A stretch of 64,000 nt of DNA. Origin: an uncultured Eubacterium sp. GTDB lineage: Bacteria; Bacillota; Clostridia; Oscillospirales; Acutalibacteraceae. Where the stretch lies: contig CAJOEV010000005.1 in NCBI GenBank assembly GCA_905233545.1, positions 1,425 to 65,424 on the forward strand. The letters are read 5' to 3'. The notes below the pieces were generated by a model. That model ran no database searches and was not told where the DNA came from. It saw nothing but the letters and a program-made list of their open reading frames with translations. Position numbers and translations under genes: made by a program. This document shows, one piece after another, positions 3,681 through 63,493 of this stretch (the stretch's first letter is position 1; every line of letters starts with the position of its first letter).

Positions 3681-3775
3681 GAGTTTGTCCTCCGTTTTAA
3701 TTCCTATTTGTTTTGTAGGTTTTTCCGCTAAAGATACTAACATAATTATTTTGATATGTCAATGGTTTTTTATTC

Positions 3776-3962: not shown

Positions 3963-4043
3963 AATTTTTTATATTGATATTGAAATATCACATTAATGGT
4001 GATACAATATATCTTGTATTTTTTATGGGGGTGAACAGGCTCA

Positions 4044-6588: not shown

Positions 6589-7785
6589 ATGTTAACACTT
6601 GATAAGGTATACAAAGCCTCACGGGTTCTCAGCGAAGTTGTCCGTCAGACCGATATGATTGCCGCACCGAAGCTCAATCCTTCGGCGGATATCTATCTTA
6701 AAACTGAAAACCTTCAGGTAACGGGCTCGTTCAAGGTAAGGGGCTCATACTATAAAATCAGCCAGCTTTCCGACGAGGAAAAGAAAAACGGCGTTATTGC
6801 CTGCTCCGCAGGTAACCACGCGCAGGGCGTTGCGCTTGCAGCGGCAAAAAGCGGAATAAATTCGCTGATTTGTCTGCCCGAGGGCGCTCCGATAAGCAAG
6901 GTTGAGGCAACAAGAAAATACGGCGCCGAAATCTGTATGGTAAAGGGCGTTTACGACGACGCATATAATAAAGCGCTCGAACTCCAGAAGGAAAAGGGCA
7001 TGGCGTTCATCCATCCCTTCAACGACCCCGATGTTATCGCAGGTCAGGGCACAATCGGTCTTGAGATTCTGAATCAGCTTCCCGAGGCGGACATTGTTGT
7101 TGTTCCCGTCGGCGGCGGCGGACTTATCGCAGGCGTTGCATATGCAATCAAACAGCTTAAGCCCTCCTGCAAGGTATACGGCGTTCAGGCAAGCGGTGCG
7201 CCCTCAATGCAAAAGAGCATTGACGACGGCGAGATTGAAACACTTTCAAAGGTCAACACTATTGCCGACGGTATTGCCGTTAAAACTCCGGGCACTCTTA
7301 CATATGATATCTGCAAGGAATATGTTGACGGAATTATAACCGTAACAGATGATGAAATTGCCCTTGCAATCCTGACCCTGCTTGAACAGCAGAAGCTTAT
7401 TGCAGAAGGCGCGGGCGCTGTTCCCGTTGCAGCTGTTATGAACGGAAAAATTCCCGATATGAAGGGCAAAAAGGTCTGCTGTCTTGTTTCGGGCGGAAAT
7501 ATTGATGTAACAATTCTTTCAAGAGTTATTGAAAGAGGACTTCTTATGGGCGGAAGAACAGCCGATATCGTTATTGCGCTTTCGGATAAACCCGGTCAGC
7601 TCGCAGGAGTCAGCCGTATTATTGCAGAACAGGGCGCAAATGTTGTTTCGGTTAATTACGACTCAACCGACCTCGACATGAATATAACCGACTGCTATTT
7701 GAAAATCGGCGTTGAAACAAGGAACTTTGAGCATATCGCCTCGGTTAAAAAGGCACTTACCGACGCAGGCTTTCAGGTCTGTTAA
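6589..7785 (+). CDS. ilvA: threonine ammonia-lyase (threonine dehydratase) with C-terminal ACT-like domain
   Basis: PLP motif LQVTGSFKVRG and GGGGLIAG are present. 398 aa. Confidence 0.9.
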   Translation: MLTLDKVYKASRVLSEVVRQTDMIAAPKLNPSADIYLKTENLQVTGSFKVRGSYYKISQLSDEEKKNGVIACSAGNHAQGVALAAAKSGINSLICLPEGAPISKVEATRKYGAEICMVKGVYDDAYNKALELQKEKGMAFIHPFNDPDVIAGQGTIGLEILNQLPEADIVVVPVGGGGLIAGVAYAIKQLKPSCKVYGVQASGAPSMQKSIDDGEIETLSKVNTIADGIAVKTPGTLTYDICKEYVDGIITVTDDEIALAILTLLEQQKLIAEGAGAVPVAAVMNGKIPDMKGKKVCCLVSGGNIDVTILSRVIERGLLMGGRTADIVIALSDKPGQLAGVSRIIAEQGANVVSVNYDSTDLDMNITDCYLKIGVETRNFEHIASVKKALTDAGFQVC

Positions 7786-7900
7786 TAATTAGGAATTAGA
7801 AATGAGGAATGAGGAATTTCGGGTCGCTTTGCTCCGATTATAATCGGGTGAGGGCGGAGCCCTCCCAAAACTCCTAATTCCTAACTCCTAATTCCTCATT
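7786..7900. repeat. heptamer-arm element, full (GGAATTA/GGAATGA arms, core TTCGGGTCGCTTTGCTCCGATTATAATCG + GC hairpin)
   Basis: AATTAGGAATTAGAAATGAGGAATGAGGAAT, then the core with the perfect palindrome CGATTATAATCG. GAGGGCGGAGCCCTCCC follows, then CTCCTAATTCCTAACTCCTAATTCCTCATT. Confidence 0.8.
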
Positions 7901-7916
7901 AATAAGGAGAATAACT

Positions 7917-8288: not shown

Positions 8289-8301
8289 GCTCTGCTTTTT
8301 T
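8277..8301 (+). terminator. intrinsic terminator of ridA
   Basis: GCAGAGC-TTTAA-GCTCTGC followed by TTTTTT. The stop codon lies in the loop. Confidence 0.8.
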
Positions 8302-8302
8302 A

Positions 8303-8387
8303 ATTGAGAATGGAGAATTGAGAATGGAGAATTTCGGGTCGCTTCGCTCCGCACCCCTAAAACCTAACACCTAACACCTAAAAAACC
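8303..8387. repeat. heptamer-arm element with non-matching arms (GAGAATG left, CCTAACA right)
   Basis: ATTGAGAATGGAGAATTGAGAATGGAGAAT, then core TTCGGGTCGCTTCGCTCCGC, then ACCCCTAAAACCTAACACCTAACACCTAAAAAACC. Confidence 0.75.
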
Positions 8388-8445: not shown

Positions 8446-8724
8446 TAAGCAGGCTGAATCCGAAACACAAGCGGTTTTCAGATGCATATTTCCCTTTATA
8501 CTTCACAAAATTTCTTGAAAGACGCAAGTCTTCCTTCAAAATCTTGTTTCGCCTAAAAGAAAATCTGCTATCTGAAAACTGCTGCGCATTTCTCAGCCAG
8601 TCATTTTTTAGATAGTTTCGTCGTTAATCGACGAAGTTTTACCGGCGTAAATCGAGGAGATTATGGCGAAAATATCAGGAAAGGACGGCTGAGAAACGAT
8701 TGGATTTCGGGTTCAGCCTGCTTA
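8446..8724 (+). ncRNA. structured repeated element, copy 1 (unclassified; 5' leader of rlmB)
   Basis: 20-bp terminal helix TAAGCAGGCTGAATCCGAAA / TTTCGGGTTCAGCCTGCTTA. Internal helices are CGGTTTTCAGAT/ATCTGAAAACTG and TTCTCAGCC/GGCTGAGAA, plus hairpin TTTCGTCG-TTAA-TCGACGAA. Homologous to 63494..63715 on the other strand. Confidence 0.7.
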
Positions 8725-8727
8725 TTT

Positions 8728-9483
8728 ATGAAAAATGAAAATATAAAGAATAACGATAATTTAATAATCGGCAGAAATGCGGTGCTTGAACTTCTCAAAA
8801 GCGGACGCGAAATTGAAAATGTTCTTGTTGCCAAGGGCGAAAGAGAGGGCTCGATTAACCATATTCTTTCGCTTTGCAGGGAGAAAAAGATTGTTGTGAA
8901 AACCGTTGACAGAAGAAAGCTCGATTCGCTTTGTGCAGGCGCAAATCATCAGGGTGTTGCGGCAAATGTTCCCTCCCATGAATATTCGAGCGTTGATGAT
9001 ATTCTTGCTCTTGCCGAAGAAAAAGGCGAGCCCCCATTCATAATCATCTGCGACGAGATTGAGGACAGCCACAATTTAGGCGCAATAATAAGAACTGCCG
9101 AAGCGTGCGGAGCGCACGGAATAATTATTCCCAAAAGGCGCAATGTCGGGCTGAATTTTGTTGTTGCAAAAACAAGCTGCGGCGCGCTTGAATATATGAA
9201 GGTTGCAAGAGTCGGCAACCTTGCACAGACGATTGACGATTTGAAAAAGAAAAACATCTGGGTTTATGCCGCCGATATGGACGGACAGCGCTGGGACAAA
9301 ACCGATTTTTCGGGCGGTGCGGCGCTTGTTGTCGGAAGTGAGGGCAGCGGAGTGGGCAGGCTGATAAAAGAAAAATGCGATGTTACCGTTTCGCTTCCGA
9401 TGCTCGGCAAGGTCAATTCCCTCAACGCTTCCGTTGCAGCAGGAATAATTATGTACGAAATTGCGAGACAGCGGTTGGATTAG
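8728..9483 (+). CDS. rlmB: 23S rRNA (guanosine-2'-O)-methyltransferase RlmB (SpoU/TrmH family)
   Basis: 251 aa with IIGRNAVLELLKSG N-terminal domain and a SpoU C-terminal part (LVVGSEGSGV...SLNASVAAGI). Confidence 0.85.
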   Translation: MKNENIKNNDNLIIGRNAVLELLKSGREIENVLVAKGEREGSINHILSLCREKKIVVKTVDRRKLDSLCAGANHQGVAANVPSHEYSSVDDILALAEEKGEPPFIIICDEIEDSHNLGAIIRTAEACGAHGIIIPKRRNVGLNFVVAKTSCGALEYMKVARVGNLAQTIDDLKKKNIWVYAADMDGQRWDKTDFSGGAALVVGSEGSGVGRLIKEKCDVTVSLPMLGKVNSLNASVAAGIIMYEIARQRLD

Positions 9484-9524
9484 GTGTTAGGTGTTAGGTG
9501 TTAGTGTGGCGATTCAGAATCGCC
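9481..9524. repeat. heptamer array (TAGGTGT x3.5) + GGCGATTC-AGA-ATCGCC hairpin
   Basis: TAGGTGTTAGGTGTTAGGTGTTAGTGTGGCGATTCAGAATCGCC. The first TAG is the rlmB stop codon. Confidence 0.75.
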
Positions 9525-9543: not shown

Positions 9544-12087
9544 ATGAGTGAAAATTTATCAATTGAAGAAATAATTGCAAAAGCCGAAGAAATCAAGGCG
9601 CAGGCTGAAAAACAGCTAAAAAGCGCCGAGCAAAAGCTCGATGAACAGGCTAAGGCTGCAATTGACGAGGTTGTTGTTGACGAAAAAGCCGTTGTCGACA
9701 AGATAACAAGGGCTTTTGAGCGCATTGAAGAGGAAGAAACAGTTAAAGAGTTCATACCTTCAAAGGATAAGAAAACAAAAACGGTTACTCTTCCGAATGA
9801 TGATGACATTAAAATCGCTGAGCCCGTTGTCAGCAGTGATAAAACAATAACTGTCAACATTAAGGAAAACGACAGCGACACAAAGATTGCAGAGCCCGCT
9901 GTCAACAGCGACAAAACAATAACCGTTAACATTAAGGAAAACGACGACGATACAAAGATTGCAAAGCCCGTTGTCAACAGCGAAAAAACAATAACTGTTA
10001 ACATTAAGGAAACCGACGATGATACAAAGATTGCCGATCCCGTCGGTGATGACGAAAAAACAAAGCAGATTGCATTTGTTTCAAAGGCAAAGCACAATAA
10101 GGAGAGCGACCTTCACGAAATTCCGACAATTGTTGCAAAGGAAAACCTTATTGACGGATTTGATGTTGCTCCCGAGGGTGATTTTGTTCCCGAAACGGGC
10201 GACCAGATAACCTTTGAGGGCTTTGATGACGAAATCGAAGAGGTCCCGACGATTGACGAGGATGTTGCCGAGCAGATTCTTGAGGAGCGCAGGCGCGAAA
10301 AAGTTGTAAAATTCCGTTTGTTCGGTCCCGATGAAACGGATTTGAAGCTCGGAAACGACAACGAAATTGAAGAGGAATATGTTTCTCGAAACGAAACAAA
10401 CGAATTCTTAAGAAATCTGCTTGCAAGCAGAAGGGCTCAGAAGCTCCGCACAATATTAACGGGAGTTATTGAAATATTCCTCATTCTTCTGACCGTATTT
10501 AAAAACAGCGGCAGGCTTCATCCCGACTTTTTGAACAGTCCGACTCCGTTTTTTATTACGGCAATAATTCTTTATGTCGGCGCTCTTGCAATCAATTTCA
10601 ATTCGATTGTTCAGGGATTCAGAATCAAAAAACATATCAATTTTGATTTTTGCACCAATATAATCTGCATTGCGGTGCTCGTTCACACTGTGGCAATGCT
10701 GTTTAATAACTTCCTTTGGATTGATAACGGCATACTGTTTGCCGCATTCGGCTGTTTTGCGCTTCTGATGTCGTCGCTCGGCAAATCAAAAATGCTCAGC
10801 CGTACCATTGATAACTTCAAATTTGTAACCTCGTCAAGCAATAATTTCACACTTGAAAATGTTGCAAACGATATCGACGCCGAACGAATCTGCCGCGGAC
10901 TTGTTGAGGGCGAGGCAAACGTGATAACAAGTGTTCAGACTGATTTCCCGACGAACTTCCTTGAAATTTCATATAAAAACGAGCCCGCAAACAAGATTTC
11001 AAGAAAAATTCTTCCGATTTCCATTGTCCTGAATCTGATATTGTTTGTTGTTGTCGGCTTCCTCGATAATTTCAACACGGCATTCAATATGCTGATGTGC
11101 GGACTCTGTGTTTCGCTTCCCTGCTGCGGATTGTTTTTAACAAATTCAACCCTCTGCGATGTGAGCAGTGCGCTTAATGAATACGGCGCAAGAGTTTGCG
11201 GATACGAGGGTGCGGCTATGGCGTACAGCGCAAACACAATGGTTATGGAGGCAAGCGACCTCTTCGGCAAAAACAGCTGTGAAATGCACGGAATCAAGAC
11301 CTTTGACAATGCAAAGGTTGACGACGCAATCATTCATGCTGCGGCGGTTATGACCCAGACAAAAAGTCCGCTTGCCCATGTTTTTGATGATGTTATCATC
11401 GGCAAGCAATCAATTCTTCCGAGGGTTGACAAGATAAGCTATGAGGATAAACAGGGCACTTCGGGCTGGATTTATAACAAAAAAGTTCTTGTCGGAAACC
11501 GCACAATGCTGAAAAATCACGGCGTTCCCGTTCCGAGTGAGAGCTTTGAGAAAAAGCATTCAATAAGAGGAAGAAAGGTGCTTTATCTTTCAATCGATTC
11601 AAAGCTTACGGCAATGTTTGTTGTCAGCTACTCAGCCGAGCCGAATCTTAAAAGAGAGCTGAGAAAGCTTGAAAAAAGCGGAATCACAATTCTTGTTAAA
11701 AGCACCGACCCGTATATCAACGAAGAGAGCATGGCAAAGCTTTTCTCGCTTCCGAAGGGCTTTATAAGAGTTCTTAATTCTTCCTCCGCAATGGTTTATG
11801 AAAAGTATTCTAATATGCATGTTGACAAATCTCCCGCATATGTTGTTCACAACGGAACAGCGCTCGGCTTTGTTTCGGCAATGCGTGCTTCGGAAGTTAT
11901 TATCAGCCAGAGAAAGCTCATTTCCTTCCTCTCGCTCTTTGGCTCTGCGCTCGGGTTCGGCGTTGTTGCTCTTCTTGCAATACTCGGCGCATATACCCAG
12001 CTTTCGGCAGTCAGCATAATTATTTTCCAGCTGATATGGAACGCATTTGTTCTTGCAATATCCAAAATCAGAGGTATCAGCTTATAA
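9544..12087 (+). CDS. P-type-ATPase-like membrane protein lacking the DKTGT phosphorylation motif, with a long repeat-containing acidic N-terminus
   Basis: 847 aa. The C-terminal half resembles P1B-ATPase TM/HAD regions (SLPCCG in a TM segment; ...NTMVMEASDLFGKN... where DKTGT is expected; LYLSIDSKLTAMFVVSYSAEPNLKRELRKLEKSGITILV). Confidence 0.55.
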   Translation: MSENLSIEEIIAKAEEIKAQAEKQLKSAEQKLDEQAKAAIDEVVVDEKAVVDKITRAFERIEEEETVKEFIPSKDKKTKTVTLPNDDDIKIAEPVVSSDKTITVNIKENDSDTKIAEPAVNSDKTITVNIKENDDDTKIAKPVVNSEKTITVNIKETDDDTKIADPVGDDEKTKQIAFVSKAKHNKESDLHEIPTIVAKENLIDGFDVAPEGDFVPETGDQITFEGFDDEIEEVPTIDEDVAEQILEERRREKVVKFRLFGPDETDLKLGNDNEIEEEYVSRNETNEFLRNLLASRRAQKLRTILTGVIEIFLILLTVFKNSGRLHPDFLNSPTPFFITAIILYVGALAINFNSIVQGFRIKKHINFDFCTNIICIAVLVHTVAMLFNNFLWIDNGILFAAFGCFALLMSSLGKSKMLSRTIDNFKFVTSSSNNFTLENVANDIDAERICRGLVEGEANVITSVQTDFPTNFLEISYKNEPANKISRKILPISIVLNLILFVVVGFLDNFNTAFNMLMCGLCVSLPCCGLFLTNSTLCDVSSALNEYGARVCGYEGAAMAYSANTMVMEASDLFGKNSCEMHGIKTFDNAKVDDAIIHAAAVMTQTKSPLAHVFDDVIIGKQSILPRVDKISYEDKQGTSGWIYNKKVLVGNRTMLKNHGVPVPSESFEKKHSIRGRKVLYLSIDSKLTAMFVVSYSAEPNLKRELRKLEKSGITILVKSTDPYINEESMAKLFSLPKGFIRVLNSSSAMVYEKYSNMHVDKSPAYVVHNGTALGFVSAMRASEVIISQRKLISFLSLFGSALGFGVVALLAILGAYTQLSAVSIIIFQLIWNAFVLAISKIRGISL
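9799..10066 (+). repeat. 72-bp in-frame tandem repeat x3.7 (24-aa unit DDDTKIAEPVVNSDKTITVNIKEN)
   Basis: Units start at 9799, 9871, 9943 and 10015 (the last is partial). Confidence 0.85.
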
Positions 12088-12153
12088 ATGCAAAGTGCAA
12101 AATGCATAATGCAAAATGACCTAAAACCTAACACCTAACACCTAAAACCTAAA
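12087..12153. repeat. two abutting heptamer arrays without core (AATGCAA-type then CCTAACA-type)
   Basis: AATGCAAAGTGCAAAATGCATAATGCAAAATG + ACCTAAAACCTAACACCTAACACCTAAAACCTAAA. It spans the gap between two convergent stop codons. Confidence 0.7.
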
Positions 12154-12847
12154 TATCATACTCATCATTGAACATTGCTTCATATTCAAGTTTTTTGATG
12201 TCAAAGCTCGGTTTGCAGGACAGTTTATTTCTGTCAGCATTCTGAGCTTTTTCTTTTTCTCTTTTCCTGCTCCAGCTCAGAAGCGTTGCATAGTGAGAAG
12301 CATAGTCCTTGCCCGTTGAGGCAATATATGTTGAAAGCTCGTCTATCAGATAAATAAGTCCCAGATTTTTGAGCTTTTCATATTCTTCATCTGATAAAAT
12401 TATATTTTCAAAATCTCCATATTTCTTGTTTGTCTTATCATTCTTATCATTATTATCATTCTTATCATTATTGTTTGTCGTTAGCTCTGCGTTATCACTG
12501 CGTTGATACTGCGTTAACGGTGCGTTAGAAATGATTTCAGTTTCCTGATAAGTGCAGTAATTAAGCAGTTTTATCCGCGAATAGCGGTGCGTTGAAATTA
12601 TTGAAATTTCGCCAGAGCTTTCAAGCTTTTTTAATGCCGTTCTGACTTGCTGATATGTTATCCCAAGTTCCTCTGCAAGCCTATATGCCGAGGTCACCCG
12701 TTCCCCCGTTCCGACTTCAATGCCCTTCCATCTTTTCGGCATGTGATTCACCGTTAAAAGAAGGTGCAAAAATACCGCCTTGACATTGTTATCCTGGTAC
12801 CATTCCCAATTTACCATTTTTCTGTGTAGCTTAATCCAGCCGTCCAT
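12149..12847 (-). CDS. phage/plasmid-type replication-organizer-like protein (N-terminal wHTH, C-terminal DnaD-like domain)
   Basis: MDGWIKLHRKMVNWEWYQDNNVKAVFLHLLL... is typical of Firmicute phage replication proteins. The C-terminus YASHYATLLSWSRKR is DnaD-like. It has a low-complexity NNDKNDNNDKNDK linker. Confidence 0.55.
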   Translation of the reverse strand: MDGWIKLHRKMVNWEWYQDNNVKAVFLHLLLTVNHMPKRWKGIEVGTGERVTSAYRLAEELGITYQQVRTALKKLESSGEISIISTHRYSRIKLLNYCTYQETEIISNAPLTQYQRSDNAELTTNNNDKNDNNDKNDKTNKKYGDFENIILSDEEYEKLKNLGLIYLIDELSTYIASTGKDYASHYATLLSWSRKREKEKAQNADRNKLSCKPSFDIKKLEYEAMFNDEYDI

Positions 12848-12988: not shown

Positions 12989-13043
12989 TCAATACCTTTT
13001 GCAACATTTGTTTTTTCAATTTGCAACCATTGGGCAACAAAAA

Positions 13044-13131
13044 GGGAGGGTCGGGAGACCCTCCCCTACAATTTTTAATTGTCCGGGTAAAGCGAGAAAC
13101 CAAAAACTCGCAACTCGGAGCTCGCAACTTT
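13044..13131. repeat. REP hairpin with CTAC tail + half module (core + GAGTTGC-type arm)
   Basis: GGGAGGGTC-GGGA-GACCCTCCC-CTAC, then ACAATTTTTAATTGT, then CCGGGTAAAGCGAGAAACC, then AAAAACTCGCAACTCGGAGCTCGCAACTTT. It ends at the GH95 stop codon. Confidence 0.8.
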
Positions 13132-15434: not shown

Positions 15435-15523
15435 CAGGTAGTTGGTAGTAGTGGCGATTCTCGAATCGCCCGGATCACGGACCACGAACCACGAACCACG
15501 AACCACGGATCACGGACCACGGG
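15435..15523. repeat. heptamer-arm element (GTAGTTG left, CACGAAC/CACGGAC right) around GGCGATTC-TC-GAATCGCC hairpin
   Basis: CAGGTAGTTGGTAGTAGTG, then GCGATTCTCGAATCGC, then CCGGATCACGGACCACGAACCACGAACCACGAACCACGGATCACGGACCACGGG. It ends at the serS stop. Confidence 0.75.
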
Positions 15524-16810
15524 TTATTCCTTCGGGTAAATTTTATCCTTACCGCCCATATACATTCTCAGTGCTTCGGGGATGTTTACGCTTCCGTCGG
15601 CGTTGAGGTTGTTTTCAAGGAACGCAATAAGCATTCTCGGCGGTGCAACAACTGTATTGTTGAGGGTATGAGCAAGATAGTTGCCCTTTTCGCCCTTGAT
15701 TCTTATTTTAAGTCTGCGTGCCTGTGCGTCGGTAAGGTTTGAGCAGGAGCCGACTTCAAAATACTTCTGCTGGCGCGGTGACCAAGCTTCAACATCAACG
15801 CTCTTAACCTTGAGGTCAGCAAGGTCGCCCGAACAGCATTCAAGCGTTCTAACGGGGATATCAAGCGTTCTGAAAAGGTCAACGGTATTCTGCCAGAGCT
15901 GGTCGAACCAATAGCGTGATTCCTCGGGCTTGCAGACAACAACCATTTCCTGCTTTTCAAACTGATGAATTCTGTAAACGCCTCTTTCCTCTATTCCGTG
16001 AGCGCCCTTTTCCTTTCTGAAACAGGGTGAATATGAGGTTAATGTGAGCGGAAGCTGTGCTTCGGGGGTGATTGTATCGATAAACTTACCAATCATTGAA
16101 TGTTCGCTTGTTCCGATGAGATATAAGTCCTCACCCTCGATTTTATACATCATTGCATCCATTTCTTCAAAGCTCATAACGCCCGTTACAACATTTGAGC
16201 GAATCATAAACGGCGGAACAACATAGGTGAAACCTCTGTCTATCATAAAATCGCGCGCATAGCTGATAACCGCGCTGTGGAGTCTTGCGATATCGCCCAT
16301 GAGATAGTAGAAACCGTTGCCTGCAACTCTTCCTGCAGCGTCCATATCAATTCCGTTAAATGTTTCCATAATATCGGTATGATATGGAATTTCATAATCG
16401 GGAACAACGGGCTCGCCGTACTTCTGAACTTCAACATTTTCACTGTCGTCCTTACCAATCGGAACGCTGGAATCAATGATGTTGGGAATGCTCATCATTA
16501 TTTTGGTAACCTTTTCGCCGAGCTCGTTTTCTTTCTTTGCAAGCTCCTCAAGCTCCTTTGCCTGAGCAGTTACCTTGTCTTTGAGCGCCATTCCCTCTTC
16601 GCGCTTGCCCTGGGACATTAAAACGCCGATTTCCTTTGAAATCTTGTTTCTGTTTGCGCGAAGCTCGTCCGCCTTTGCAATAGCCCCTCTTCTCTCTTCG
16701 TCAAGCTTGATTACCTCATCAACGAGCTCAAGCTTGTGCTCCTGGAACTTCTTTTTAATATTTTCCTTAACTATTTCGGGATTTTCCCTTACAAATTTAA
16801 TATCAAGCAT
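15524..16810 (-). CDS. serS: serine--tRNA ligase
   Basis: 428 aa starting MLDIKFVRENPEIVKENIKKK, with class II core motifs. Confidence 0.95.
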   Translation of the reverse strand: MLDIKFVRENPEIVKENIKKKFQEHKLELVDEVIKLDEERRGAIAKADELRANRNKISKEIGVLMSQGKREEGMALKDKVTAQAKELEELAKKENELGEKVTKIMMSIPNIIDSSVPIGKDDSENVEVQKYGEPVVPDYEIPYHTDIMETFNGIDMDAAGRVAGNGFYYLMGDIARLHSAVISYARDFMIDRGFTYVVPPFMIRSNVVTGVMSFEEMDAMMYKIEGEDLYLIGTSEHSMIGKFIDTITPEAQLPLTLTSYSPCFRKEKGAHGIEERGVYRIHQFEKQEMVVVCKPEESRYWFDQLWQNTVDLFRTLDIPVRTLECCSGDLADLKVKSVDVEAWSPRQQKYFEVGSCSNLTDAQARRLKIRIKGEKGNYLAHTLNNTVVAPPRMLIAFLENNLNADGSVNIPEALRMYMGGKDKIYPKE

Positions 16811-22250: not shown

Positions 22251-22270
22251 ACTTAACCTCTAATTTATTT

Positions 22271-22328
22271 GTTCGAGCGAAGCGAGTAACCGAAAACTCG
22301 GAACTCGGGGCTCGAAACTCGCAACTTT
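22271..22328. repeat. half module in the mnmE-mnmG junction (core + GAGTTNC arm)
   Basis: GTTCGAGCGAAGCGAGTAACC + GAAAACTCGGAACTCGGGGCTCGAAACTCGCAACTTTT. It ends at the mnmE stop. Confidence 0.75.
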
Positions 22329-23712: not shown

Positions 23713-23796
23713 CCGTGCGCAGCACCCGACAACTCGGAACTCGGGGCTCGCAACTCGCAACTTATTAATGGCGAACGCCAACCGTCCGCCATTAAT
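23713..23796. repeat. half module in the jag-mnmE junction (core GTGCGCAGCACCCG + GAGTTNC arm + ATTAATGGCG palindrome)
   Basis: CCGTGCGCAGCACCCG + ACAACTCGGAACTCGGGGCTCGCAACTCGCAACTT + ATTAATGGCG...CGCCATTAAT. Confidence 0.7.
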
Positions 23797-28205: not shown

Positions 28206-28206
28206 A

Positions 28207-28250
28207 AGGGCGATTCTAAAATCGCCCCTACATCCTAACACCTAACACCT
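28207..28250. repeat. REP-like hairpin with CTAC tail + CCTAACA array
   Basis: GGGCGATT-CTAA-AATCGCCC-CTAC at 28208..28231, then ATCCTAACACCTAACACCT. It fills the gap between two convergent stops. Confidence 0.75.
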
Positions 28251-30251: not shown

Positions 30252-30690
30252 ATGCATAATATTCATCCTTGCCGATTAGCCATTTTCTTGGGTTTTCATC
30301 AATGTATTGAAGATGATAAAAATAATCTTCGTCGTCGCGGATAATGTGGTCGTAGAATCCCGTTTGCCATATGTTTTCACCGATTTGTTTATTGCAAAAT
30401 CGTTTTAATGTTCCAATATGCCTTGAAAGAAGTGAATTTGTAGGGAGCGGCGACCTCGACGCTCCATTGGTATCCGTTTTCTCAACCGAAACAATCAAAT
30501 GAATGTGATTCGGCATTATCACATATTTTTCAAATTTTATTTCTTCGTATCTTTTGTTCATCTCGATGATGTTGTTCTCAACAATTATGCCGTTTTTTGA
30601 TAAAACAATTTGCGGAGCGTCGGGGTCGCCGCTCCCTACAATAAAAAACGGGCGATTCGCGAATCGCTCCCACTGCCTAAAACCTAACAC
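30250..30690 (-). CDS. REP-associated tyrosine transposase (RAYT, IS200-like HUH), probably N-terminally truncated
   Basis: HUH motif in VIMPNHIHLIVSV. C-terminus is WQTGFYDHIIRDDEDYFYHLQYIDENPRKW. It lacks the YDYS..YFITICT N-terminal strand present in the paralog at 58958..59449. The N-terminal 17 aa are read from repeat sequence. Confidence 0.75.
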   Translation of the reverse strand: MLGFRQWERFANRPFFIVGSGDPDAPQIVLSKNGIIVENNIIEMNKRYEEIKFEKYVIMPNHIHLIVSVEKTDTNGASRSPLPTNSLLSRHIGTLKRFCNKQIGENIWQTGFYDHIIRDDEDYFYHLQYIDENPRKWLIGKDEYYA

Positions 30691-30712
30691 CTAAAACCTA
30701 ACACCTAAAAAA
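30614..30712. repeat. REP hairpin (CTAC tail) + GGGCGATTCGCGAATCGCTCCC hairpin + CCTAAAA/CCTAACA array
   Basis: GGAGCG-TCGGGGTCGC-CGCTCC-CTACAAT, then GGGCGATTCGCGAATCGCTCCC, then ACTGCCTAAAACCTAACACCTAAAACCTAACACCTAAAAAAA. It overlaps the 5' end of the RAYT ORF. Confidence 0.8.
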
Positions 30713-35020: not shown

Positions 35021-35145
35021 AGTTGCGCGTTACGAGTTTCGCGTTGCGCGTTTTCGGTTTCTCGGCTTTGCCTCGTTCAATTATTATTGTCTGAGCGCAG
35101 CGAGTAACCAACAACTCGGAGCTCGGGGCTTGCAATTCGAAACTT
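35021..35145. repeat. heptamer-arm element, full copy A (GAGTTGC-type arms, palindromic double core)
   Basis: AGTTGCGCGTTACGAGTTTCGCGTTGCGCG, then TTTTCGGTTTCTCGGCTTTGCCTCGTTCAATTATTATTGTCTGAGCGCAGCGAGTAACC, then AACAACTCGGAGCTCGGGGCTTGCAATTCGAAACTT. Confidence 0.85.
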
Positions 35146-35147
35146 TT

Positions 35148-37564
<2,417 letters not shown>

Positions 37565-41557: not shown

Positions 41558-41767
41558 TTATATTCAAGTCCTTATATAATTATAAAATAACATTATAATT
41601 ATATAATAATATATATATTAAGTCAATATTATATTTTAAATATTTTAATAATTATAAACATTATAATAACACTTTTGTGGAAAACTTGTGCTTGTGCAAA
41701 CAGTGCTATTGCATTTTGAATATTTATAAGATATAATTAACTAAAATAATGAAAAAGGAGGGCAAAA
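41558..41767. promoter_or_regulatory. dnaA upstream region: extremely AT-rich tract + one DnaA box (probable oriC half / dnaA promoter)
   Basis: About 100 nt (41575..41670) is almost pure A/T. TGTGGAAAA lies at 41676..41684. Gene orientation switches here. Confidence 0.6.
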
Positions 41768-46049: not shown

Positions 46050-46394
46050 TTAATTATTATTCTTTGCGGTATTAACAGACGCAATCAATAATCTGCGAAT
46101 GGTTCCGCATTGATTTAATAACACCTTTGCTGTCTCATCATTAAGAAGAGCAGTTTTTTGGAAAAGCTTTAACCAATATTCGGTTTCATATGTTTCTTTC
46201 AGAGCTATTTGTAATTTTGATATAAAGTCCGCTTTGCTTTGAGCGTAGTTGGCTTCATGAATATTTGCACCGATACTTGTAGCAGAGCGCTCAATTTGAT
46301 TAACGAGCGCATAATGCCCTTTTATTGATTCAACTGCATTTAATATAGAAACAGAAAAATCCATTGATAAATCAATAAGCTTGTTTTCTTTCAC
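46050..46394 (-). CDS. four-helix-bundle protein (23S rRNA intervening-sequence protein family)
   Basis: SIGANIHEANYAQSKADFISKLQIALKETYETEYWLKL. GTG start after GAGGTGG. Confidence 0.8.
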   Translation of the reverse strand: MKENKLIDLSMDFSVSILNAVESIKGHYALVNQIERSATSIGANIHEANYAQSKADFISKLQIALKETYETEYWLKLFQKTALLNDETAKVLLNQCGTIRRLLIASVNTAKNNN

Positions 46395-46424
46395 AATACC
46401 ACCTCATAAGTATTTTATCATATT

Positions 46425-46600
46425 AAATGAAATATTGATATACAATATGAAATAATTTGCTAAAGAAAATTGTGAAATATCTCGTTTTGCTCGATATGAA
46501 ATAAAATTAATCCATTATACGCCGCAGGCGTATTTCATTGCAAAGCAATTTCATATTCTGAAAGAATATTTCATTAATCCGCAAGGATTAATTTAATTGG
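46425..46600. repeat. probable heptamer-arm element (ATGAAAT-type arms, TCGTTTTGCTCGAT core, small palindromes)
   Basis: TGAAAT/ATTTCA units occur on both sides. The centre carries TACGCC-GCA-GGCGTA and ATTAATCC-GCAA-GGATTAAT. Confidence 0.5.
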
Positions 46601-46640
46601 GAGACCTTCCGTAAAGAAGGTCTCCCAAGAGGCTTTTTTA

Positions 46641-47582: not shown

Positions 47583-47650
47583 AATAGTACCCTCCTAATA
47601 ATTAATACTTATATATTATACAACATTATATATGGTAATGCAATAAAAAA

Positions 47651-47707
47651 GTTGAGAGTTCCGAGTCCCGAGTTGCAAGTTTTCGCATCGTTTTGCTCCG
47701 ATTATAT
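47651..47707. repeat. half module (GAGTTCC/GAGTTGC arm + core TTTCGCATCGTTTTGCTCCGATTATA)
   Basis: GTTGAGAGTTCCGAGTCCCGAGTTGCAAG + TTTTCGCATCGTTTTGCTCCGATTATA. It ends at the ribU stop. Confidence 0.7.
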
Positions 47708-48325: not shown

Positions 48326-48566
48326 GCAAAAAGAGAACCCCGACAGTTTCTGTCGGGGTGATATTGTTTTAACAATATGATTTCTCTCGTCCGGACTTAT
48401 GATTTTCATCAATTACCGTCGGTTACGGAATTCCACCGTATCAGTCCTAAAAATTGTATCAATTTTTTGGAGTCGCAGACTTTTACTGCCGGTGAGGAAT
48501 AGGCATTCGATTACATTTTTTGTTACACAATATGTAGTTGAACGCTGCACCTCGCCCCGAAATATT
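48326..48566 (-). ncRNA. FMN riboswitch (RFN element) with terminator expression platform
   Basis: The minus strand carries CACCGGCAGTAAAAGTCTGCGAC, GGTGGAATTCCGTAACCGACGGTAA and AGTCCGGACGAGAGAA. The terminator is CCCCGACAG-AAA-CTGTCGGGG followed by TTCTCTTTTT (48326..48359). Confidence 0.85.
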
Positions 48567-48840
48567 TTGTGTTTTTGGTGCTTTTATTATAGCAAAAACC
48601 CCGATTTTGTCAATTTTTGTATTACATAATTAAATAAGTGTAATACAAAATACCCATTTTTATACACATAATTCGAAAATTGTCTATTAAACTATATTGA
48701 AATTTGACAACACCGATTAAATCTGTTATAAACTTAGCCGTTGCGAAGATATTACAAATTTGTAACAAAAAAACCAAAAAGGAGTAATTGTTATTAGTAT
48801 CAAAGTTAAAGCAGTTTCCGTTGTTCTTGCTGCAGCGTTC

Positions 48841-54403: not shown

Positions 54404-54450
54404 GCGTGCGTAGCACCCGAAGCCTAACCCAAAATTTTACACCTGAAAAA
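54404..54450. repeat. degenerate half module (core GTGCGTAGCACCCG + CCTAACC-type arm)
   Basis: GCGTGCGTAGCACCCGAAGCCTAACCCAAAATTTTACACCTGAAAAAC. Compare 23713..23763. Confidence 0.45.
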
Positions 54451-55801: not shown

Positions 55802-56524
55802 ATGCAGAAATTATTTATTGATTACACACCCGAAAACGAAATAATTCTTGACGGCGAACAGGCGCGCCATATTGCCAGGTCCCTGAGGATGAAAAAGGGC
55901 GATATGCTGATTGTCAACGATTCAAAGGGAAACGATTTCGGCTGTATTATTGAAGAAATAACCAAAGAAACCGTCAGACTTTCGGTTTGCTATCAGCAGG
56001 CAAGCGATTGCGAGCCCGACTGCAAGGTAAGAATTTATCAGGCAAACCCGAAGGGAAGCAAGATCGAAGATATTATTCAGAAATGTGTTGAGCTCGGCGT
56101 TTTCGATATTACACCCGTTTTAACGGCAAGGTGCGTAAGCCGTCCCGACGAAAAAAGCGCGAAAAAGAAAACCGAAAGATATAATAAAATTGCCCTTGAA
56201 GCCGCCCAGCAGAGCGGAAGGGGCATTGTTCCGAAGGTAAACGGGCTTATTCCTCTAAAACAAGCTGTTCGGGAGGACGACAGTGAAGTTAAAATTGTTT
56301 TCTATGAGGGTGGAGGCGCTCCGCTGAGAGAACTTGTCGGCGAAAACACAAAAAGCGTTTCAATCTATATCGGTCCCGAGGGCGGATTTGAAAAAGAAGA
56401 GGTTGATTTGATAGTATCAAACGGTGCCTCAGCCGCAACTCTCGGCAAAAGAATCCTTCGAACTCAGACCGCTCCCGTAGCCGCTCTTTCGGCAATTATG
56501 CTGATAACTAATAATCTTGAATAA
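55802..56524 (+). CDS. rsmE: 16S rRNA (uracil1498-N3)-methyltransferase
   Basis: 240 aa containing ...LDGEQARHIARSLRMKKGD... and IGPEGGFEKEEV. Confidence 0.9.
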   Translation: MQKLFIDYTPENEIILDGEQARHIARSLRMKKGDMLIVNDSKGNDFGCIIEEITKETVRLSVCYQQASDCEPDCKVRIYQANPKGSKIEDIIQKCVELGVFDITPVLTARCVSRPDEKSAKKKTERYNKIALEAAQQSGRGIVPKVNGLIPLKQAVREDDSEVKIVFYEGGGAPLRELVGENTKSVSIYIGPEGGFEKEEVDLIVSNGASAATLGKRILRTQTAPVAALSAIMLITNNLE

Positions 56525-56527
56525 TAG

Positions 56528-56649
56528 TAAAGAGTGAAAAGAGAAGAGTGAAGAGTTTTGGTTTCTCGGCTTTGCCTCGGTCAATAAAAATTATTGTCTG
56601 AGCGCAGCGAGTAACTTCAATTCTTCACTCTTAATTCTTAATTCTTAAC
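56528..56649. repeat. heptamer-arm element, full copy B (AGAGTGA/GAAGAGT arms, same double core as 35051..35109)
   Basis: TAAAGAGTGAAAAGAGAAGAGTGAAGAG, then TTTTGGTTTCTCGGCTTTGCCTCGGTCAATAAAAATTATTGTCTGAGCGCAGCGAGTAAC, then TTCAATTCTTCACTCTTAATTCTTAATTCTTAAC. Confidence 0.85.
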
Positions 56650-57498
56650 TTATAAATTATTCCTTGCCCAGTGGAATAAATACTGCTGAGCAATTCCTTC
56701 AATTCCCTCAAAGCATTCGGGAAGTCCGTCGGGATAATATTCCATAACCCTTTTCATCCAGACATCAACGGGGAAGGCGCTCAAAAAGCCAAAACCGAAC
56801 AGCAAAGCGCAGTTTGCAACCTTTATTCCAACTCCGTATATATTTAACAGCTCTTTCCTCGCGTCGTCGAGCGAAAGGCTTTTTATTTTCTGCAAATCGA
56901 TTTCACCGCAGGCAACATCCTTTGCAAGCTTTTCAAGATATTTTGCGCGGTATCCGCAGCCGAGCGCTTCAAAATCAGCTGTGCTGAGCTGTGAAAGCCT
57001 TTCAGCCGAGGGGAAGGAATAATATCCGTTTCCCAAATCATCGCCGTATGCATTGCAAAGGCGCGAAATAATAAGCTTTATTCTTTTAATATTGTTCTGC
57101 TGGCTTATAACAAACGAGCAAAGCGCTTCCCAGGGCTCCTGGTTCAGTATTCTTATGCCGTAGTATTCATCAATGGTTGAGGAGAGAAGCTCGTCCTCTT
57201 TGAGTTTTTCGCAGATTGCCTTATAATCCCTGTTTAAATCGAAATAGTTAACCCAGAAATTATTGAAAACATCAATATCCGTGTTTTCAAAGATTAAATC
57301 GCCGTTTTCTTTTCTGATTTTAAGGAAATGACCGCCCGCAGCACCGCAGTAGGAGCCGTCCTCCTGCCGTTCCCATCTGAAAGCCTGACCGCAGTCAAGA
57401 GTTAAGTCCAGGTCAAGACAGTCAACGCCTGACACAACAAGCGAATTGTTTAACTTTTTTATCTCCATAATTTTTCTCTTTTCGTCAAAATTATACAA
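56650..57498 (-). CDS. HhH-GPD DNA glycosylase (8-oxoguanine / 3-methyladenine glycosylase type)
   Basis: 282 aa containing ...LDCGQAFRW... and ...LLNIYGVGIKVANCALLFGF...FPVDVW. The start may instead be the internal MEIKKL. Confidence 0.8.
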   Translation of the reverse strand: MYNFDEKRKIMEIKKLNNSLVVSGVDCLDLDLTLDCGQAFRWERQEDGSYCGAAGGHFLKIRKENGDLIFENTDIDVFNNFWVNYFDLNRDYKAICEKLKEDELLSSTIDEYYGIRILNQEPWEALCSFVISQQNNIKRIKLIISRLCNAYGDDLGNGYYSFPSAERLSQLSTADFEALGCGYRAKYLEKLAKDVACGEIDLQKIKSLSLDDARKELLNIYGVGIKVANCALLFGFGFLSAFPVDVWMKRVMEYYPDGLPECFEGIEGIAQQYLFHWARNNL

Positions 57499-58148: not shown

Positions 58149-58829
58149 TTGAAAAAGATATTGAACTATTTGTTGATTTTCGTTCTTGTTGCGGCAATAG
58201 GAGCAGGCAGTTTTGCCGTTTTTAACGCAACATTTAAGGAGGAAAGCGTTTATGCGCTTTCAAAATACGGCTCAACGGGGAGCGAGGTTAAAAAAATACA
58301 GAAGGTTTTGAAGAGTTTGGGCTACTATACGGGTTCCGTTGACGGAATATACGGAACAAAAACAAAGAAGGCGGTAACTCAGTTCCAAAGGGACTGCGCG
58401 CTTACTGCCGACGGAATATGCGGACCGAAAACCCTGCTCTATCTCGGACTTTCGGACGATGGAGGAAGCGGCTATTCAAGCCAGGATGTCAATCTGCTTG
58501 CAAAGGTTATTTCGGCTGAAGCAAGGGGAGAGAGCTATGAGGGTCAGGTTGCTGTCGGAGCGGTTATTCTTAACAGAGTGGCGCACCCGAGCTTTCCCGA
58601 TACGGTCAGCGGAGTTGTTTATCAAAACGGCGCATTCTCCTGCGTAAACGATTCAAACTGGTATCAGCCCGTTGCCGATTCGGCAAAAAGAGCCGCTCAG
58701 GACGCCATAAACGGCTGGGACCCGTCGGGCGGAGCAGTTTATTACTACAACCCCGAAAAAACGAGCAATAAGTGGATACGAAGCAGAACGGTAGTAAAGG
58801 TCATCGGGCATCATTATTTTTGTATATAA
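58149..58829 (+). CDS. sleB: SleB-like cell-wall hydrolase (PG_binding_1 + Hydrolase_2 domains)
   Basis: GSEVKKIQKVLKSLGYYTGSVDGIYGTKTKKAVTQFQ and LLAKVISAEARGESYEGQVAVGAVILNR. TTG start. Confidence 0.8.
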   Translation: MKKILNYLLIFVLVAAIGAGSFAVFNATFKEESVYALSKYGSTGSEVKKIQKVLKSLGYYTGSVDGIYGTKTKKAVTQFQRDCALTADGICGPKTLLYLGLSDDGGSGYSSQDVNLLAKVISAEARGESYEGQVAVGAVILNRVAHPSFPDTVSGVVYQNGAFSCVNDSNWYQPVADSAKRAAQDAINGWDPSGGAVYYYNPEKTSNKWIRSRTVVKVIGHHYFCI

Positions 58830-58885
58830 TTATGAATTACGAGTTACGAATTATTGTTACTCGCTTCGCTTGGACGATTATAAGG
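58829..58885. repeat. half module (ACGAGTT/ACGAATT arm + core GTTACTCGCTTCGCTTGGACGATTATAAGG)
   Basis: ATTATGAATTACGAGTTACGAATT + ATTGTTACTCGCTTCGCTTGGACGATTATAAGG. It starts at the sleB stop. Confidence 0.7.
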
Positions 58886-58957: not shown

Positions 58958-59449
58958 TTATGAATAGTATTCGTCTTTGCCCATTATCCACTTTTTTGGG
59001 TTTTCTTCAATATACTGAATATGATATAAATAATCTTCTTCGTTTCTGATAATGTGGTCGTAGTATGAGCGCTGCCAGAGTGTTGAGCCATATTTATGTG
59101 TTGTATATGACTTTATGTCTCTGATGATGTCCTGTAGGGGAGGGTTTCCGCGCCCTCCCATCATAGGTTTGCAGATTGAGACTAACAAATGAATATGATT
59201 AGGCATAATAATGTGTTTTTCAATACATATATTTTTAAACCTTGAATTTGTATATTCGATTGATTTCTGAACCTCAAGACCAATATCGGAAAGTTCTATT
59301 TTGGGGAGGGCGCGGAGACCCTCCCCTACATTTTTTACGGAAGAGAGAACACATTTCATATCCTCAGTACATATAGTTATGAAATATTTTCCGTTTGAGG
59401 AATAATCATAATCCTTCAACCTTGTAGGTTTTCGGTCTTTCTTTTCCAT
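58958..59449 (-). CDS. REP-associated tyrosine transposase (RAYT, IS200-like HUH), full length
   Basis: LKDYDYSSNGKYFITICT N-terminal strand. HUH motif in IIMPNHIHLLVSI. C-terminus WQRSYYDHIIRNEEDYLYHIQYIEENPKKW. Confidence 0.85.
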   Translation of the reverse strand: MEKKDRKPTRLKDYDYSSNGKYFITICTEDMKCVLSSVKNVGEGLRALPKIELSDIGLEVQKSIEYTNSRFKNICIEKHIIMPNHIHLLVSICKPMMGGRGNPPLQDIIRDIKSYTTHKYGSTLWQRSYYDHIIRNEEDYLYHIQYIEENPKKWIMGKDEYYS

Positions 59450-62417: not shown

Positions 62418-63490
62418 TATTCTTCGCTTGCCTTGAGCTTTTCGGCTGTGTCGGCGGTGATTAAAGCGTCAATCAGCTCGTCGAGGTCACCGTTTAATAT
62501 CTGCTCAAGCTTATATAATGTCAGATTGATTCTGTGGTCGGAAACTCTGCCCTGGGGATAGTTATATGTTCTTATTCTTTCGCTTCTGTCGCCCGTTCCG
62601 ACCTGGGCTTTTCTTTCGCCTGCAATCTCGGCGTCGTGCTTTGCCTTTTCGGCGTCATAGAGCCTTGCGCGAAGCACCTTCATTGCCTTTTCCTTGTTTT
62701 TGTGCTGGCTTCTTTCGTCCTGGCATTCAACAACCGTTCCTGTTGGAATATGGGTTATTCTGATTGCGGACGAGGTCTTGTTTATGTGCTGACCGCCTGC
62801 ACCGCTTGAACGGAAGGTGTCGATTTCAAGGTCTTTTTCGTTGAGTTCAAAATCAACATCATCCGCCTCGGGAAGCACTGCAACGGTTGTTGTTGAGGTG
62901 TGAATTCTTCCCTGGCTTTCAGTTTCGGGAACACGCTGAACTCTGTGAACGCCCGATTCAAATTTGAAGCGCGAATATGCGCCGTCGCCGTTGACGGAAA
63001 AGCTGACTTCCTTAAATCCGCCGAGTCCCGTTTCGCTTGCGGAAAGAAGCTCGCATTTGAAGCCCTTTGCCTCGGCGTACATATTATACATTCTATATAA
63101 AACGCCTGCGAAAAGGGCGCTTTCCTCTCCGCCTGCACCGCCGCGGATTTCGATAATAACGTTTCTGTCATCGTTGGGGTCACGCGGAAGAAGAAGGATT
63201 TTCAGCTCCTCGCTGATTTTTTCCATATCCTCTTTGCTCTGCTCAAATTCCTCTTTTACCATCTGGGCAAAATCGGAATCAAGAGAGCCGTCACCAAGCA
63301 TTTCCTTTGATTCCTCATAGGTGTCCTTTGCTCTTTTATATTCTCTGAATTTTTCAACAACGGGGGTGAGCTGTTTCAACTCTTTCATAAGCTTTGTATA
63401 TTGCTCCATATCGGCAATAATTTCGCTTTTGCATACAAGCTCGTTTACCTCGTTATATTTTTTTTCAACTTGTTCTAATTTATCAAACAT
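62417..63490 (-). CDS. prfA: peptide chain release factor 1
   Basis: 357 aa starting [15 protein letters not shown], with the [13 protein letters not shown] motif. Confidence 0.97.
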
Positions 63491-63493
63491 AAC

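Follow-up and report, generated by a model that had tools for sequence, protein, structure and literature searches.

Heptad-armed intergenic repeats, probably of the REP/BIME/REPIN kind, in an uncultured rumen Eubacterium

Results

The gyrB/gyrA element and its surroundings

The DNA analysed here (hereafter the window) is a stretch of 64 kb from contig CAJOEV010000005.1 of an uncultured Eubacterium sp. It has a GC content of 41.6%, and its gene content (dnaA, dnaN, recF, gyrB, gyrA, parAB, rsmG, mnmG, mnmE, yidC and rnpA) is that of a Firmicute replication-origin neighbourhood. The GyrA protein encoded in it is 96% identical to that of a rumen Oscillospiraceae metagenome-assembled genome (MAG) and 78% identical to that of Eubacterium coprostanoligenes. 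The element under study lies between the gyrB stop codon and the gyrA start codon, and consists of two arms of degenerate tandem 7-mers (heptads) that enclose two GC-rich cores:

35021-35055: left arm, five heptads AGTTGCG CGTTACG AGTTTCG CGTTGCG CGTTTTC, detected by Tandem Repeats Finder (TRF) with period 7
35056-35081, plus strand: core A' (GGTTTCTCGGCTTTGCCTCGTTCAAT) with the mini-hairpin GGC-TTT-GCC; an 86% identical copy lies at 56556-56592 (family D8)
35082-35085: AT-rich centre TATT between the tail-to-tail cores, predicted apex of the hairpin
35086-35109, minus strand: core A, inverted (GGTTACTCGCTGCGCTCAGACAAT on the minus strand), with three mismatches against the copies at 463 and 22268
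35110-35144: right arm, AACAACT CGGAGCT CGGGGCT TGCAATT CGAAACT

The left arm belongs to direct-repeat family D5, with copies at 428 and 47650, and the right arm to family D3, whose copies at 13095, 22285 and 23721 are 74-91% identical. An earlier interpretation, made from the letters of the window alone (hereafter the sequence-only reading), had taken this copy as the full representative of a family of intergenic palindromes.

Tandem arrays with a period of 7 nucleotides (nt) are a property of the whole window. TRF returned 23 period-7 rows, and a self-match scan for short-period arrays (threshold of at least 18 matches in 21) detected 12 arrays of period 7, one of period 9 and none of periods 4-6, 8 or 10-12, against about zero in the shuffled window; the heptamer arrays reported previously are therefore real. 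Their placement was also confirmed to be at gene 3' ends and stop codons: coding sequence takes up 87.7% of the window, yet 92% of the arm bases fall outside it, and 12-13 of the 23 arms abut or overlap a stop codon. The elements, which reach a density of about 20 loci per 64 kb, lie immediately 3' of stop codons or of terminator T-runs, and some copies are found downstream of a complete terminator or within a divergent promoter region. The sequence-only reading had placed 20 loci on one plan of arm, core, mirror-image core and arm. Arms and/or shared cores were indeed found at 18-19 of the 20; at 54404 only a degenerate arm is present, and locus 46425 was rejected as an element, since it is a Gut-1 RNA region with irregularly spaced ATGAAAT and no tandem heptamer array. 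The symmetrical plan itself is not general, because both arms are present at only about seven loci of the window, the remaining ones being half elements or arms alone.

Composition of the elements

When read on the G-rich strand, 365 heptad units conform to one scaffold, A-R-T-K-N-N-G (frequencies: A.81, R.89, T.92, K.88, N, N, G.73). The final heptad always abuts the G of the GC-rich core, which fixes the register between arm and core. The AGTTGCG and TTAGGTG subfamilies cover 13-14 loci of the window and the order of units is common to copies, so that the heptamers are not specific to each locus, as had been proposed. A G3 run is absent in most units and only 3776-3827 approaches TTAGGGG, and the arms are thus not of the G-quadruplex type. 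Stop codons occur in all three frames in 41 of 78 arms, because 7 is not a multiple of 3 and most units contain TAA, TAG or TGA.

Four kinds of module follow the arms, which is more than the three core types recognised earlier. Core A has the form GGTTWCTCG(G)C-NNN-G(C)CTCRNWCAAT, with a central mini-hairpin that varies by one pair, both sides changing at once. The second kind comprises cores B and C (e.g. GGTGC-TGC-GCAC), the third is a hairpin of the type found in repetitive extragenic palindromes (REPs), GGGTG-N-GGGC...GCCC-N'-CCC, with an 8-bp stem and a bulged T, and the fourth consists of GTAG REPs, with the tag TGTAG at 3904, 13070, 28232 and 30640 and also in many relatives. An AT-rich tag, (A)TTATA(AT) or CTACAA, stands after each module. 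A half element of about 60-70 nt is made up of an arm of 4-6 degenerate heptads, a small GC-rich hairpin and the AT-rich tag, and a full element of two half units tail to tail, giving palindromes of 110-200 nt; apart from the core A'/core A doublets, the two hairpins of a full element are unlike each other.

Pairing within the hairpins is supported by covariation. In the alignment of the REP-type hairpin 95.8% of the cells are paired. Changes on both sides were counted in 15 cells, where shuffles gave 4.6 +/- 1.7 (0 of 500), and sliding the partners drops pairing to 38-55%. The core A'/core A doublets at 35021-35144 and 56523-56662 pair with each other in the predicted folds, as the two halves of a REPIN (a REP doublet forming a hairpin) do. 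The claim that each locus can fold into a long hairpin holds for two full copies, whose fold energies against shuffles give z = -3.3 to -8.3, and only weakly for the focal copy (see Discussion).

The two arms of one element had been said to use the same heptamer in inverted orientation. This is true to a moderate degree. In 15 of 27 full elements the consensus heptads of the two arms differ by no more than one mismatch, whereas randomly chosen partners come this close in 25% of cases (p = 5e-5), and the duplex energy is -20.6 kcal/mol for true partner arms and -15.6 kcal/mol for others (p = 4e-4); both tests are more informative than ungapped identity, but are inflated by species-specific dominant heptads. 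Arm pairing is therefore better than random, and unlike arms are present at 8297, at 12084 and in a relative (L062 14158; related sequences are designated here by L numbers).

Dispersed copies and growth of the arms

Eleven half elements from different loci and three species could be aligned over about 70 nt with a mean column identity of 72%. Each contains exactly five heptads in the order AGTTGCG AGTTnCG AGCCCCG AGTTCCG AGTTTTC, followed by the core. Within the window, 428-485 and 22269-22326, which lie 21.8 kb apart, are 91% identical over 58 nt (I3), and the TTAGGTG arms share the order CCTAAAA CCTAACA CCTAACA CCTAAAA (D2, I4-I7); D2, D3, D5, D6 and D8 are the dispersed families returned by repeat search. 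Two L010 loci, 1 kb apart, carry the same arm and core A, identical over about 70 nt, and their partner modules differ. Since the dispersed copies keep the heptad order together with the core, the copied unit is arm plus core. Of about 30 true copies of core A, about 27 stand directly behind an arm, and they are confined to arm-bearing genomes. Cores recur in the window where none would be expected by chance, and the same families were recovered by an independent repeat search. The dominant heptad depends on the genome (AATTATG in L014, AATTAAG in L005, AATTGAG in L006 and L010), as lineage-specific amplification would produce.

Perfect 14-nt duplications within the arms at 7869, 8302 and 30676 evidence that slippage occurs. 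The arms thus grow locally by 7- or 14-nt duplication, and this growth is secondary to copying. Of the unusual arm-generating mechanism postulated by the sequence-only reading, slippage is retained, but not a separate generation of arms at each locus, given the 11 aligned half elements and the 91% identical copies. Neither the heptad at the outer edge of the core nor the RAYT (REP-associated tyrosine transposase) sequence beside its internal REP could be shown to be the source of the arms, the similarities (GGTTACT with AGTTACG; CCC-AAAA) being too short.

The other elements of the window are the following:

428-486, plus strand: half element, AGTTGCG-type arm and core A; 91% complementary to 22269-22326 (I3)
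3770-3966: full composite of (AGGTGTT)n arm, small core, terminator-like hairpin, GTAG REP (3904-3930) and inverted arm
5520-5611: short-armed member with GGCAGCA/GGTAGCT units from the stop codon, GCTGCGC core with ATTATAA, terminator and inverted short arm
7782-7906: full element with (AATTAGG/AATGAGG) arm, core B, TATAAT, REP-type hairpin GGGTGAGGGCGGAGCCCTCCC and inverted arm; between same-strand genes, fold z = -4.2 to -8.3, hairpin covariation
8297-8386: unlike-armed element, (AATTGAG/AATGGAG), core B variant and (CCTAACA), starting at a terminator T-run (D6, D2)
9474-9522, plus strand: half element, (TTAGGTG) arm overlapping the stop codon and hairpin GGCGATTCAGAATCGCC (core D; this copy has three mismatches and falls outside the core-pattern search)
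12084-12158: abutting arms without core, (AAATGCA)n and (ACCTAAA)n, between convergent genes
13042-13129, minus strand: half element of arm, core A variant and GTAG REP (TGTAGGGGAGGGTCTCCCGACCCTCCC) with T-run
15435-15524: weak left arm, core D hairpin and long (CGGACCA)n arm, the latter ending at the serS stop codon
18492-18535, plus strand: arm only, (TTAGGTN)n (I6)
22268-22327, minus strand: half element, arm and core A, filling the mnmE/mnmG junction; site empty in six related species
23713-23762, minus strand: half element, arm and core C (GGGTGCTGCGCACGGCTATTATAA), just 5' of mnmE; the L001 orthologue has core A
28206-28250, minus strand: short (AGGTGTT) arm and core D with TGTAG tag, probably the terminator of a helix-turn-helix (HTH) gene
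30614-30712, minus strand: arm, core D and GTAG REP, fused to the 5' end of the truncated gene RAYT2
47650-47706, plus strand: half element, arm and core B variant (D5)
54404-54435, plus strand: core C variant with degenerate arm, absent in relative L162
56523-56662: full element, core A'/core A doublet, between the convergent genes rsmE and ogg; 93% identical to the L162 orthologue
58826-58880, plus strand: half element, AATTACG arm and core A, beginning at a hydrolase stop codon and lying 3' of the gene RAYT1; orthologous copy in L165

Further repeated modules were seen in relatives. Arm-less core A, preceded by another repeated hairpin, CCTCCCTTTGACAAGGGAGG, is present at L002 6690-6740, L008 19500-19560 and L010 2240-2290 and 15200-15250, and core A with the same preceding hairpin and without arms also lies 5' of gyrA in L010/L014. 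A module of about 75-100 nt (gggctccccttggagcgggcgccagaccc ttttgtccgcaagcggacatttcccctagcaggggaatcgcccgt) is central to some heptad-armed elements of relatives (L005 16700-17290, L006 7830-7930 and 21700-21800, L010 9890-9970, L165 11540-11650), and in L005 the whole element with this module is present in three tandem copies.

Orthologous sites in related species

Synteny around gyrA is conserved, so that orthologous junctions could be compared directly. An alternation of empty and filled sites was found at mnmE/mnmG, gyrB/gyrA, pnp/hth, jag/mnmE and ogg/rsmE. The mnmE/mnmG junction measures 3-15 nt in six species and holds a 77-nt half element in the window, and in L008, L014 and L006 it is occupied by full elements of 126-258 nt whose arms and cores are different each time. 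The gyrB/gyrA junction is about 20 nt long in L003, L004, L006, L011 and L074, and is occupied in the window, L001, L002, L008 and L062. At jag/mnmE an arm is common to the window and L001, with core C in the former and core A in the latter; at pnp/hth, L003 and L006 have the same arms and both cores different. The full element at ogg/rsmE is 93% identical between the window and L162, against 57-58% at four-fold degenerate sites of the flanking genes and 66% overall, and in L164 and L165 a plain bidirectional terminator occupies this site.

Heptad arms have a narrow distribution. They were detected as 46 arrays in 11 of 80 related genomes of the Genome Taxonomy Database (GTDB), all with a GyrA at least 87% identical to that of the window, and they were not found in the more distant genomes of this set nor in most metagenome relatives. 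Elements are abundant in L005, L006, L010, L014 and L062, whereas L007, L009 and L015 showed none. GTAG REPs are common in more distant relatives having no heptad arms. Because the arms are limited to a clade while arm-less GTAG REPs are common outside it, the arms are an innovation of one rumen subclade (Eubacterium coprostanoligenes group) on an older GTAG-REP background.

A separate feature lies beside the focal element. About 130 nt are inserted between gyrB and the element (35144-35343), and the insert lies between the two copies, 97% identical and with a spacing of 163, of a 37-nt direct duplication of the gyrB 3' end. This insert is also present in L001, L002, L008, L016 and L019 and absent from several relatives; it has a three-stem fold with compensatory changes in 10 of 30 pairs, and no match in Rfam.

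RAYT genes

Both RAYT genes announced by the sequence-only reading were confirmed, one of them in truncated form:

58958-59449, minus strand: RAYT1, intact HUH/Y1 transposase-like gene with HUH and tyrosine motifs and an inverted GTAG REP pair inside its open reading frame (ORF)
30253-30690, minus strand: RAYT2, 5'-truncated paralogue, 46% identical to RAYT1, with the conserved motifs lost

RAYT1 matches the NCBIfam family REP_Tyr_transpos with E = 2.8e-16 (59.7 bits, below the 80-bit cut-off), and its homologues number in thousands. It follows the domesticated, vertically inherited pattern described for RAYTs (PMC5581495), and like the RAYTs of REPIN systems it is single-copy. The internal REP pair brackets the HUH motif and encodes the invariant VGEGLxALP and GGxGxPPLQ. 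Among homologues as distant as about 60% identity the codons of these internal REPs do not vary, whereas residues that are invariant elsewhere are encoded by 2-5 different codons. In RAYT2 the inverted GTAG REP pair is another one and co-varies. These observations cover RAYT1 and RAYT2 of the window together with L162, L164, L165, L167 and L173, and no report of an inverted GTAG REP pair inside RAYT ORFs was found in the literature. The free GTAG REPs at 3904 and 13070, which are located inside heptad-armed composites, nearly match the RAYT1 internal sequence, and the 5' end of RAYT2 is fused to an arm and core. The association with GTAG hairpins noted earlier is consequently upheld. These sequences link the hairpin modules with the RAYT, and the case for the RAYT moving the elements is circumstantial. 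Downstream of the RAYT orthologue in L164 (8824-9060), a repeat pattern of another kind was noted: around a GCTGCGC core, the motif CAATTCATG / ATGAATAG is repeated to either side at intervals of 16-17 nt.

Other features of the window

The Gut-1 RNA mentioned above (RF01706, 63 bits) is encoded at 46527-46599 on the minus strand and adjoins a 23S-rRNA-IVP/Avd-like four-helix-bundle gene (46050-46394); small hairpins in series, separated by ATGAAAT/ATTTCAT, occupy the region 46050-46620. An FMN riboswitch (Rfam, 70.8 bits) at 48375-48568 lies 5' of the gene for an energy-coupling factor (ECF)-transporter S-component, an ordinary arrangement. AT-rich short repeats at 41572-41669, between dnaA and the next gene, are probably the replication origin. 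Inside a membrane protein gene (9544-12087), a 72-nt tandem repeat in three copies of 76-88% identity (9796-10063) gives a repeated 24-residue segment in the 847-residue product. Finally, 8446-8730 and 63488-63676 are inverted copies of a non-coding stretch of about 190-280 nt (80-88% identity), the first 5' of an rRNA methyltransferase gene and the second 5' of prfA; both are closed by a long stem (8446-8481 with 8689-8724) and may be a shared leader RNA, with no Rfam match.

Discussion

We consider it fairly probable that the elements are lineage-specific, non-coding mosaic repeats of the kind of REPs, bacterial interspersed mosaic elements (BIMEs) and REPINs, armed with heptads and possibly handled by a RAYT. 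As in the REP, BIME and REPIN systems of Enterobacteria and Pseudomonas (PMC3116915, PMC3733652, PMC5581495), short GC-rich imperfect hairpins with a short tag occupy intergenic sites singly or as inverted doublets, modules are combined into mosaics, the RAYT is single-copy and vertically inherited, and some modules are tagged (T/C)GTAG. The REP-type hairpin cores support the proposal of a REP-like family in a RAYT-bearing genome. Its companion statement, that the family resembles neither REP nor BIME, was too strong, since its centres consist of REP-type hairpins in tail-to-tail arrangement, like those of BIMEs and REPINs. The differences are that 4-6 phased heptads precede each hairpin and form most of the stem, that the tags are mostly TATAAT/ATTATA, that the RAYT is unflanked and carries an inverted REP pair in its own coding sequence, and that the host is a Firmicute (Oscillospirales). 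Clostridial RAYTs have been placed in Group 1, with a weak link to REPs (PMC5581495). Judging from the alignments, the heptads appear to be an integral, phased part of the copied REP-like unit, and no description of heptad-armed REP-like elements in Firmicutes was found in the literature.

The paired arms would form a long imperfect stem in single-stranded DNA or RNA, capped by two small hairpins or by paired cores. Copying may involve an intermediate in the form of a single-stranded hairpin, which the domesticated HUH transposase of the genome (RAYT) would recognise, and exchange of cores with the arms kept would be explained most simply by recombination between copies through arm homology. 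The period of 7 may have been kept through the stop codons that it places in all three frames: insertion at the very end of a gene would then be harmless, consistent with the location pattern. Once settled, copies may act as 3'-end or intercistronic hairpins and terminators, some of them under selection.

Several results weigh against this interpretation. Folding of the focal copy is weak (z = -0.7 and -1.7 for DNA; -2.9 and -0.95 for RNA), and ungapped identity of partner arms is modest (68% vs 62%), a measure that discriminates poorly because the scaffold is common to all arms. Most heptad-armed cores are tagged TATAAT/ATTATA and not with the GTAG of classical RAYT-bound REPs. RAYT1 is a single-copy gene embedded in an operon, and relatives have it in the same syntenic position with 75-83% identity; homologues of about 60% identity lie inside housekeeping operons without flanking repeats. 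The arrangement of REPINs flanking the RAYT is not seen, as RAYT1 abuts its upstream gene and has a half element on the 3' side only, and flanking arms or cores were not found at RAYT orthologues (L162-L166) or homologues (L167-L176). The GTAG REPs without arms in distant relatives indicate that a RAYT/REP background alone is insufficient for arms to arise, and the conservation of the ogg/rsmE element is easier to reconcile with a selected function than with a repeat that is purely selfish. A strain of the same species was not found in exact-protein look-ups of GyrA and RidA or in GyrA scans of GTDB and metagenomes (maximum identity 95-96%), and a look-up of RAYT1 matched only the contig of the window itself (ENA ERZ27234818:k141_3041975).

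One alternative is that the elements are selected cis-acting RNAs (terminators, RNase III or decay barriers, or devices for translation coupling) and that their repetition reflects a common function instead of mobility. REPs close to stop codons reportedly affect expression in E. coli, an effect attributed to Liang, Rudd and Deutscher in 2015, and many of the elements start at stop codons. Some cores with T-runs qualify as terminators (13042-13067, 28206-28229 and 30652-30667), and the ogg/rsmE copy is conserved far beyond the four-fold sites at a place where relatives have a bidirectional terminator. The paired arms of full elements are followed by no T-run. Among 28 elements, the better-folding strand shows no consistent bias with respect to the direction of replication, and in 17 co-directional contexts the better-folding RNA strand is the sense about as often as the antisense (6-7 each); without a strand bias, a role in RNA only is not supported. 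Many orthologous sites hold no element, junctions within housekeeping operons included, some copies lie 3' of a complete terminator or in a divergent promoter region, and no Rfam family matches the elements: only the FMN riboswitch and Gut-1 reach the gathering score, and nothing credible falls on the elements at E up to 1. We therefore hold this account to be unlikely.

Purely local microsatellites, i.e. slipped-strand mispairing in place beside ordinary terminator hairpins with no copied element, would explain the 14-nt duplications and the arms that start at terminator T-runs, and intergenic heptamer repeats are over-represented in many bacteria with no known mobile origin (PMC4692102, PMC4679880). 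They would not explain why dispersed copies share a diverged heptad order together with the adjacent core, why identical 70-nt arm-plus-core units are found at two L010 loci, why cores are common to different loci and species, or why the arms always stand in a single register with the core, and this makes them improbable.

Fixed register is also what would be expected of protein-binding arrays, in which iteron-like heptads would seat one protein per 7 nt beside the hairpin, with the RAYT, a protein of the cold-shock type and a nucleoid protein as candidates. Viral and plasmid HUH proteins bind short tandem repeats adjacent to their own hairpins. In the scaffold, heptad positions 1-4 and 7 are conserved and positions 5-6 drift, and the A-R-T-...-G pattern is also recognised in the Xanthomonas arrays discussed below. 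CspB binds one heptamer per protein (cited in PMC4679880). The heptads differ strongly between subfamilies (AGTTGCG, TGTTAGG, AATTAAG), no candidate protein was identified, and binding as the explanation would seem, from the sequences, no more probable than local slippage. A bolder proposal joins such binding to the REP-like interpretation: the heptad arms would be an assembly track for a domesticated HUH enzyme, with one protomer per heptad on a T- or Y-shaped single-stranded DNA hairpin like a parvoviral repeat, the RAYT gene would be at once enzyme and master template for the REP modules, and the heptamer excess in Xanthomonas, cyanobacteria and other bacteria would be the footprint of the same RAYT-linked system. 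This is speculative and we give it little credence, if slightly more than binding alone. The inverted terminal repeats of parvoviruses (adeno-associated virus, AAV) have a long stem with 4-nt tandem repeats and two small GC hairpins and are bound by the HUH protein Rep. The resemblance to the elements is one of shape only (a tandem-repeat stem capped by two small hairpins, and an HUH enzyme); there is no sequence relationship, and no evidence here of nicking or hairpin-primed synthesis.

Ordinary MITEs (miniature inverted-repeat transposable elements) of a DDE transposon, with the arms as terminal inverted repeats, are very improbable and largely refuted: the small size, the inverted-repeat architecture and an IS4-like transposase on the same contig, just beyond the window, would suit them, but the inverted ends of the IS4-like element (CAATGTCATTAAGTTAA) are unrelated to arms or cores, half elements are common, the arms vary between copies far more than transposase-bound ends would allow, and no target-site duplication is visible at empty/filled sites, whose flanks are too diverged for a firm test. 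Other identities were rejected. The seven matches of core A in viral contigs lack arms and the full core and appear to be fortuitous; the plasmid search gave no match; and integron attC sites do not suit flanking genes that are core housekeeping genes in conserved synteny, with no integrase among the ORFs scanned.

The heptads on their own have parallels in other bacteria. Mazel, in 1990, is said to have described heptamer repeats of the short tandemly repeated repetitive (STRR) type in cyanobacteria, and Elhai, in 2008, reportedly found hairpin-forming small dispersed repeats (SDR) embedded in tandem heptamers of Nostoc. Intergenic TAACTGA heptamer repeats are known from Beggiatoaceae (PMC4679880). 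These, like the arms, are intergenic tandem heptamers, but they are mostly direct, use other heptamers and have no reported fixed arm-plus-core unit. The nearest published parallel for the arms is the inverted heptamer arrays of Xanthomonas (Rehm et al. 2015), where (GGGAATC)n/(GGGANTN)n forms about 185 intergenic arrays of about four units (89-93% intergenic), close to the end of the upstream gene and sometimes overlapping its stop codon, with 70-75 arrays per genome reported in inverted pairs able to form stem-loops (PMC4692102). Degenerate tandem intergenic heptamers near the upstream gene end, often as inverted pairs, are likewise what is found here, and the rotated units AATCGGG, AGTCGGG, AATGGGG and AATCGAG fit the A-R-T-...-G scaffold. 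The Xanthomonas arrays are rich in G-tracts with one dominant heptamer, whereas here several subfamilies exist and most arms lack G-tracts; their authors favoured a G-quadruplex reading and described no cores, REP hairpins or transposase link (PMC4692102). As regards a match to a named repeat, then, the elements correspond to no Rfam family, and arrays of inverted intergenic heptamers had already been published.

The elements fill operon junctions and the 3' ends of core genes (gyrB/gyrA, mnmE/mnmG); in MAGs they cause assembly breaks and can be annotated as ORFs in error, and they could be used as strain markers. If the REP-like interpretation is true, elements of the REPIN type would be extended to uncultured rumen Firmicutes. 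The excess of intergenic heptamers in bacteria has been left unexplained (Mrazek 2007, cited in PMC4692102), and our results suggest that a heptad-armed family offers one explanation for it. The literature on REPs and RAYTs and that on heptamer simple repeats would then merge into one testable problem.

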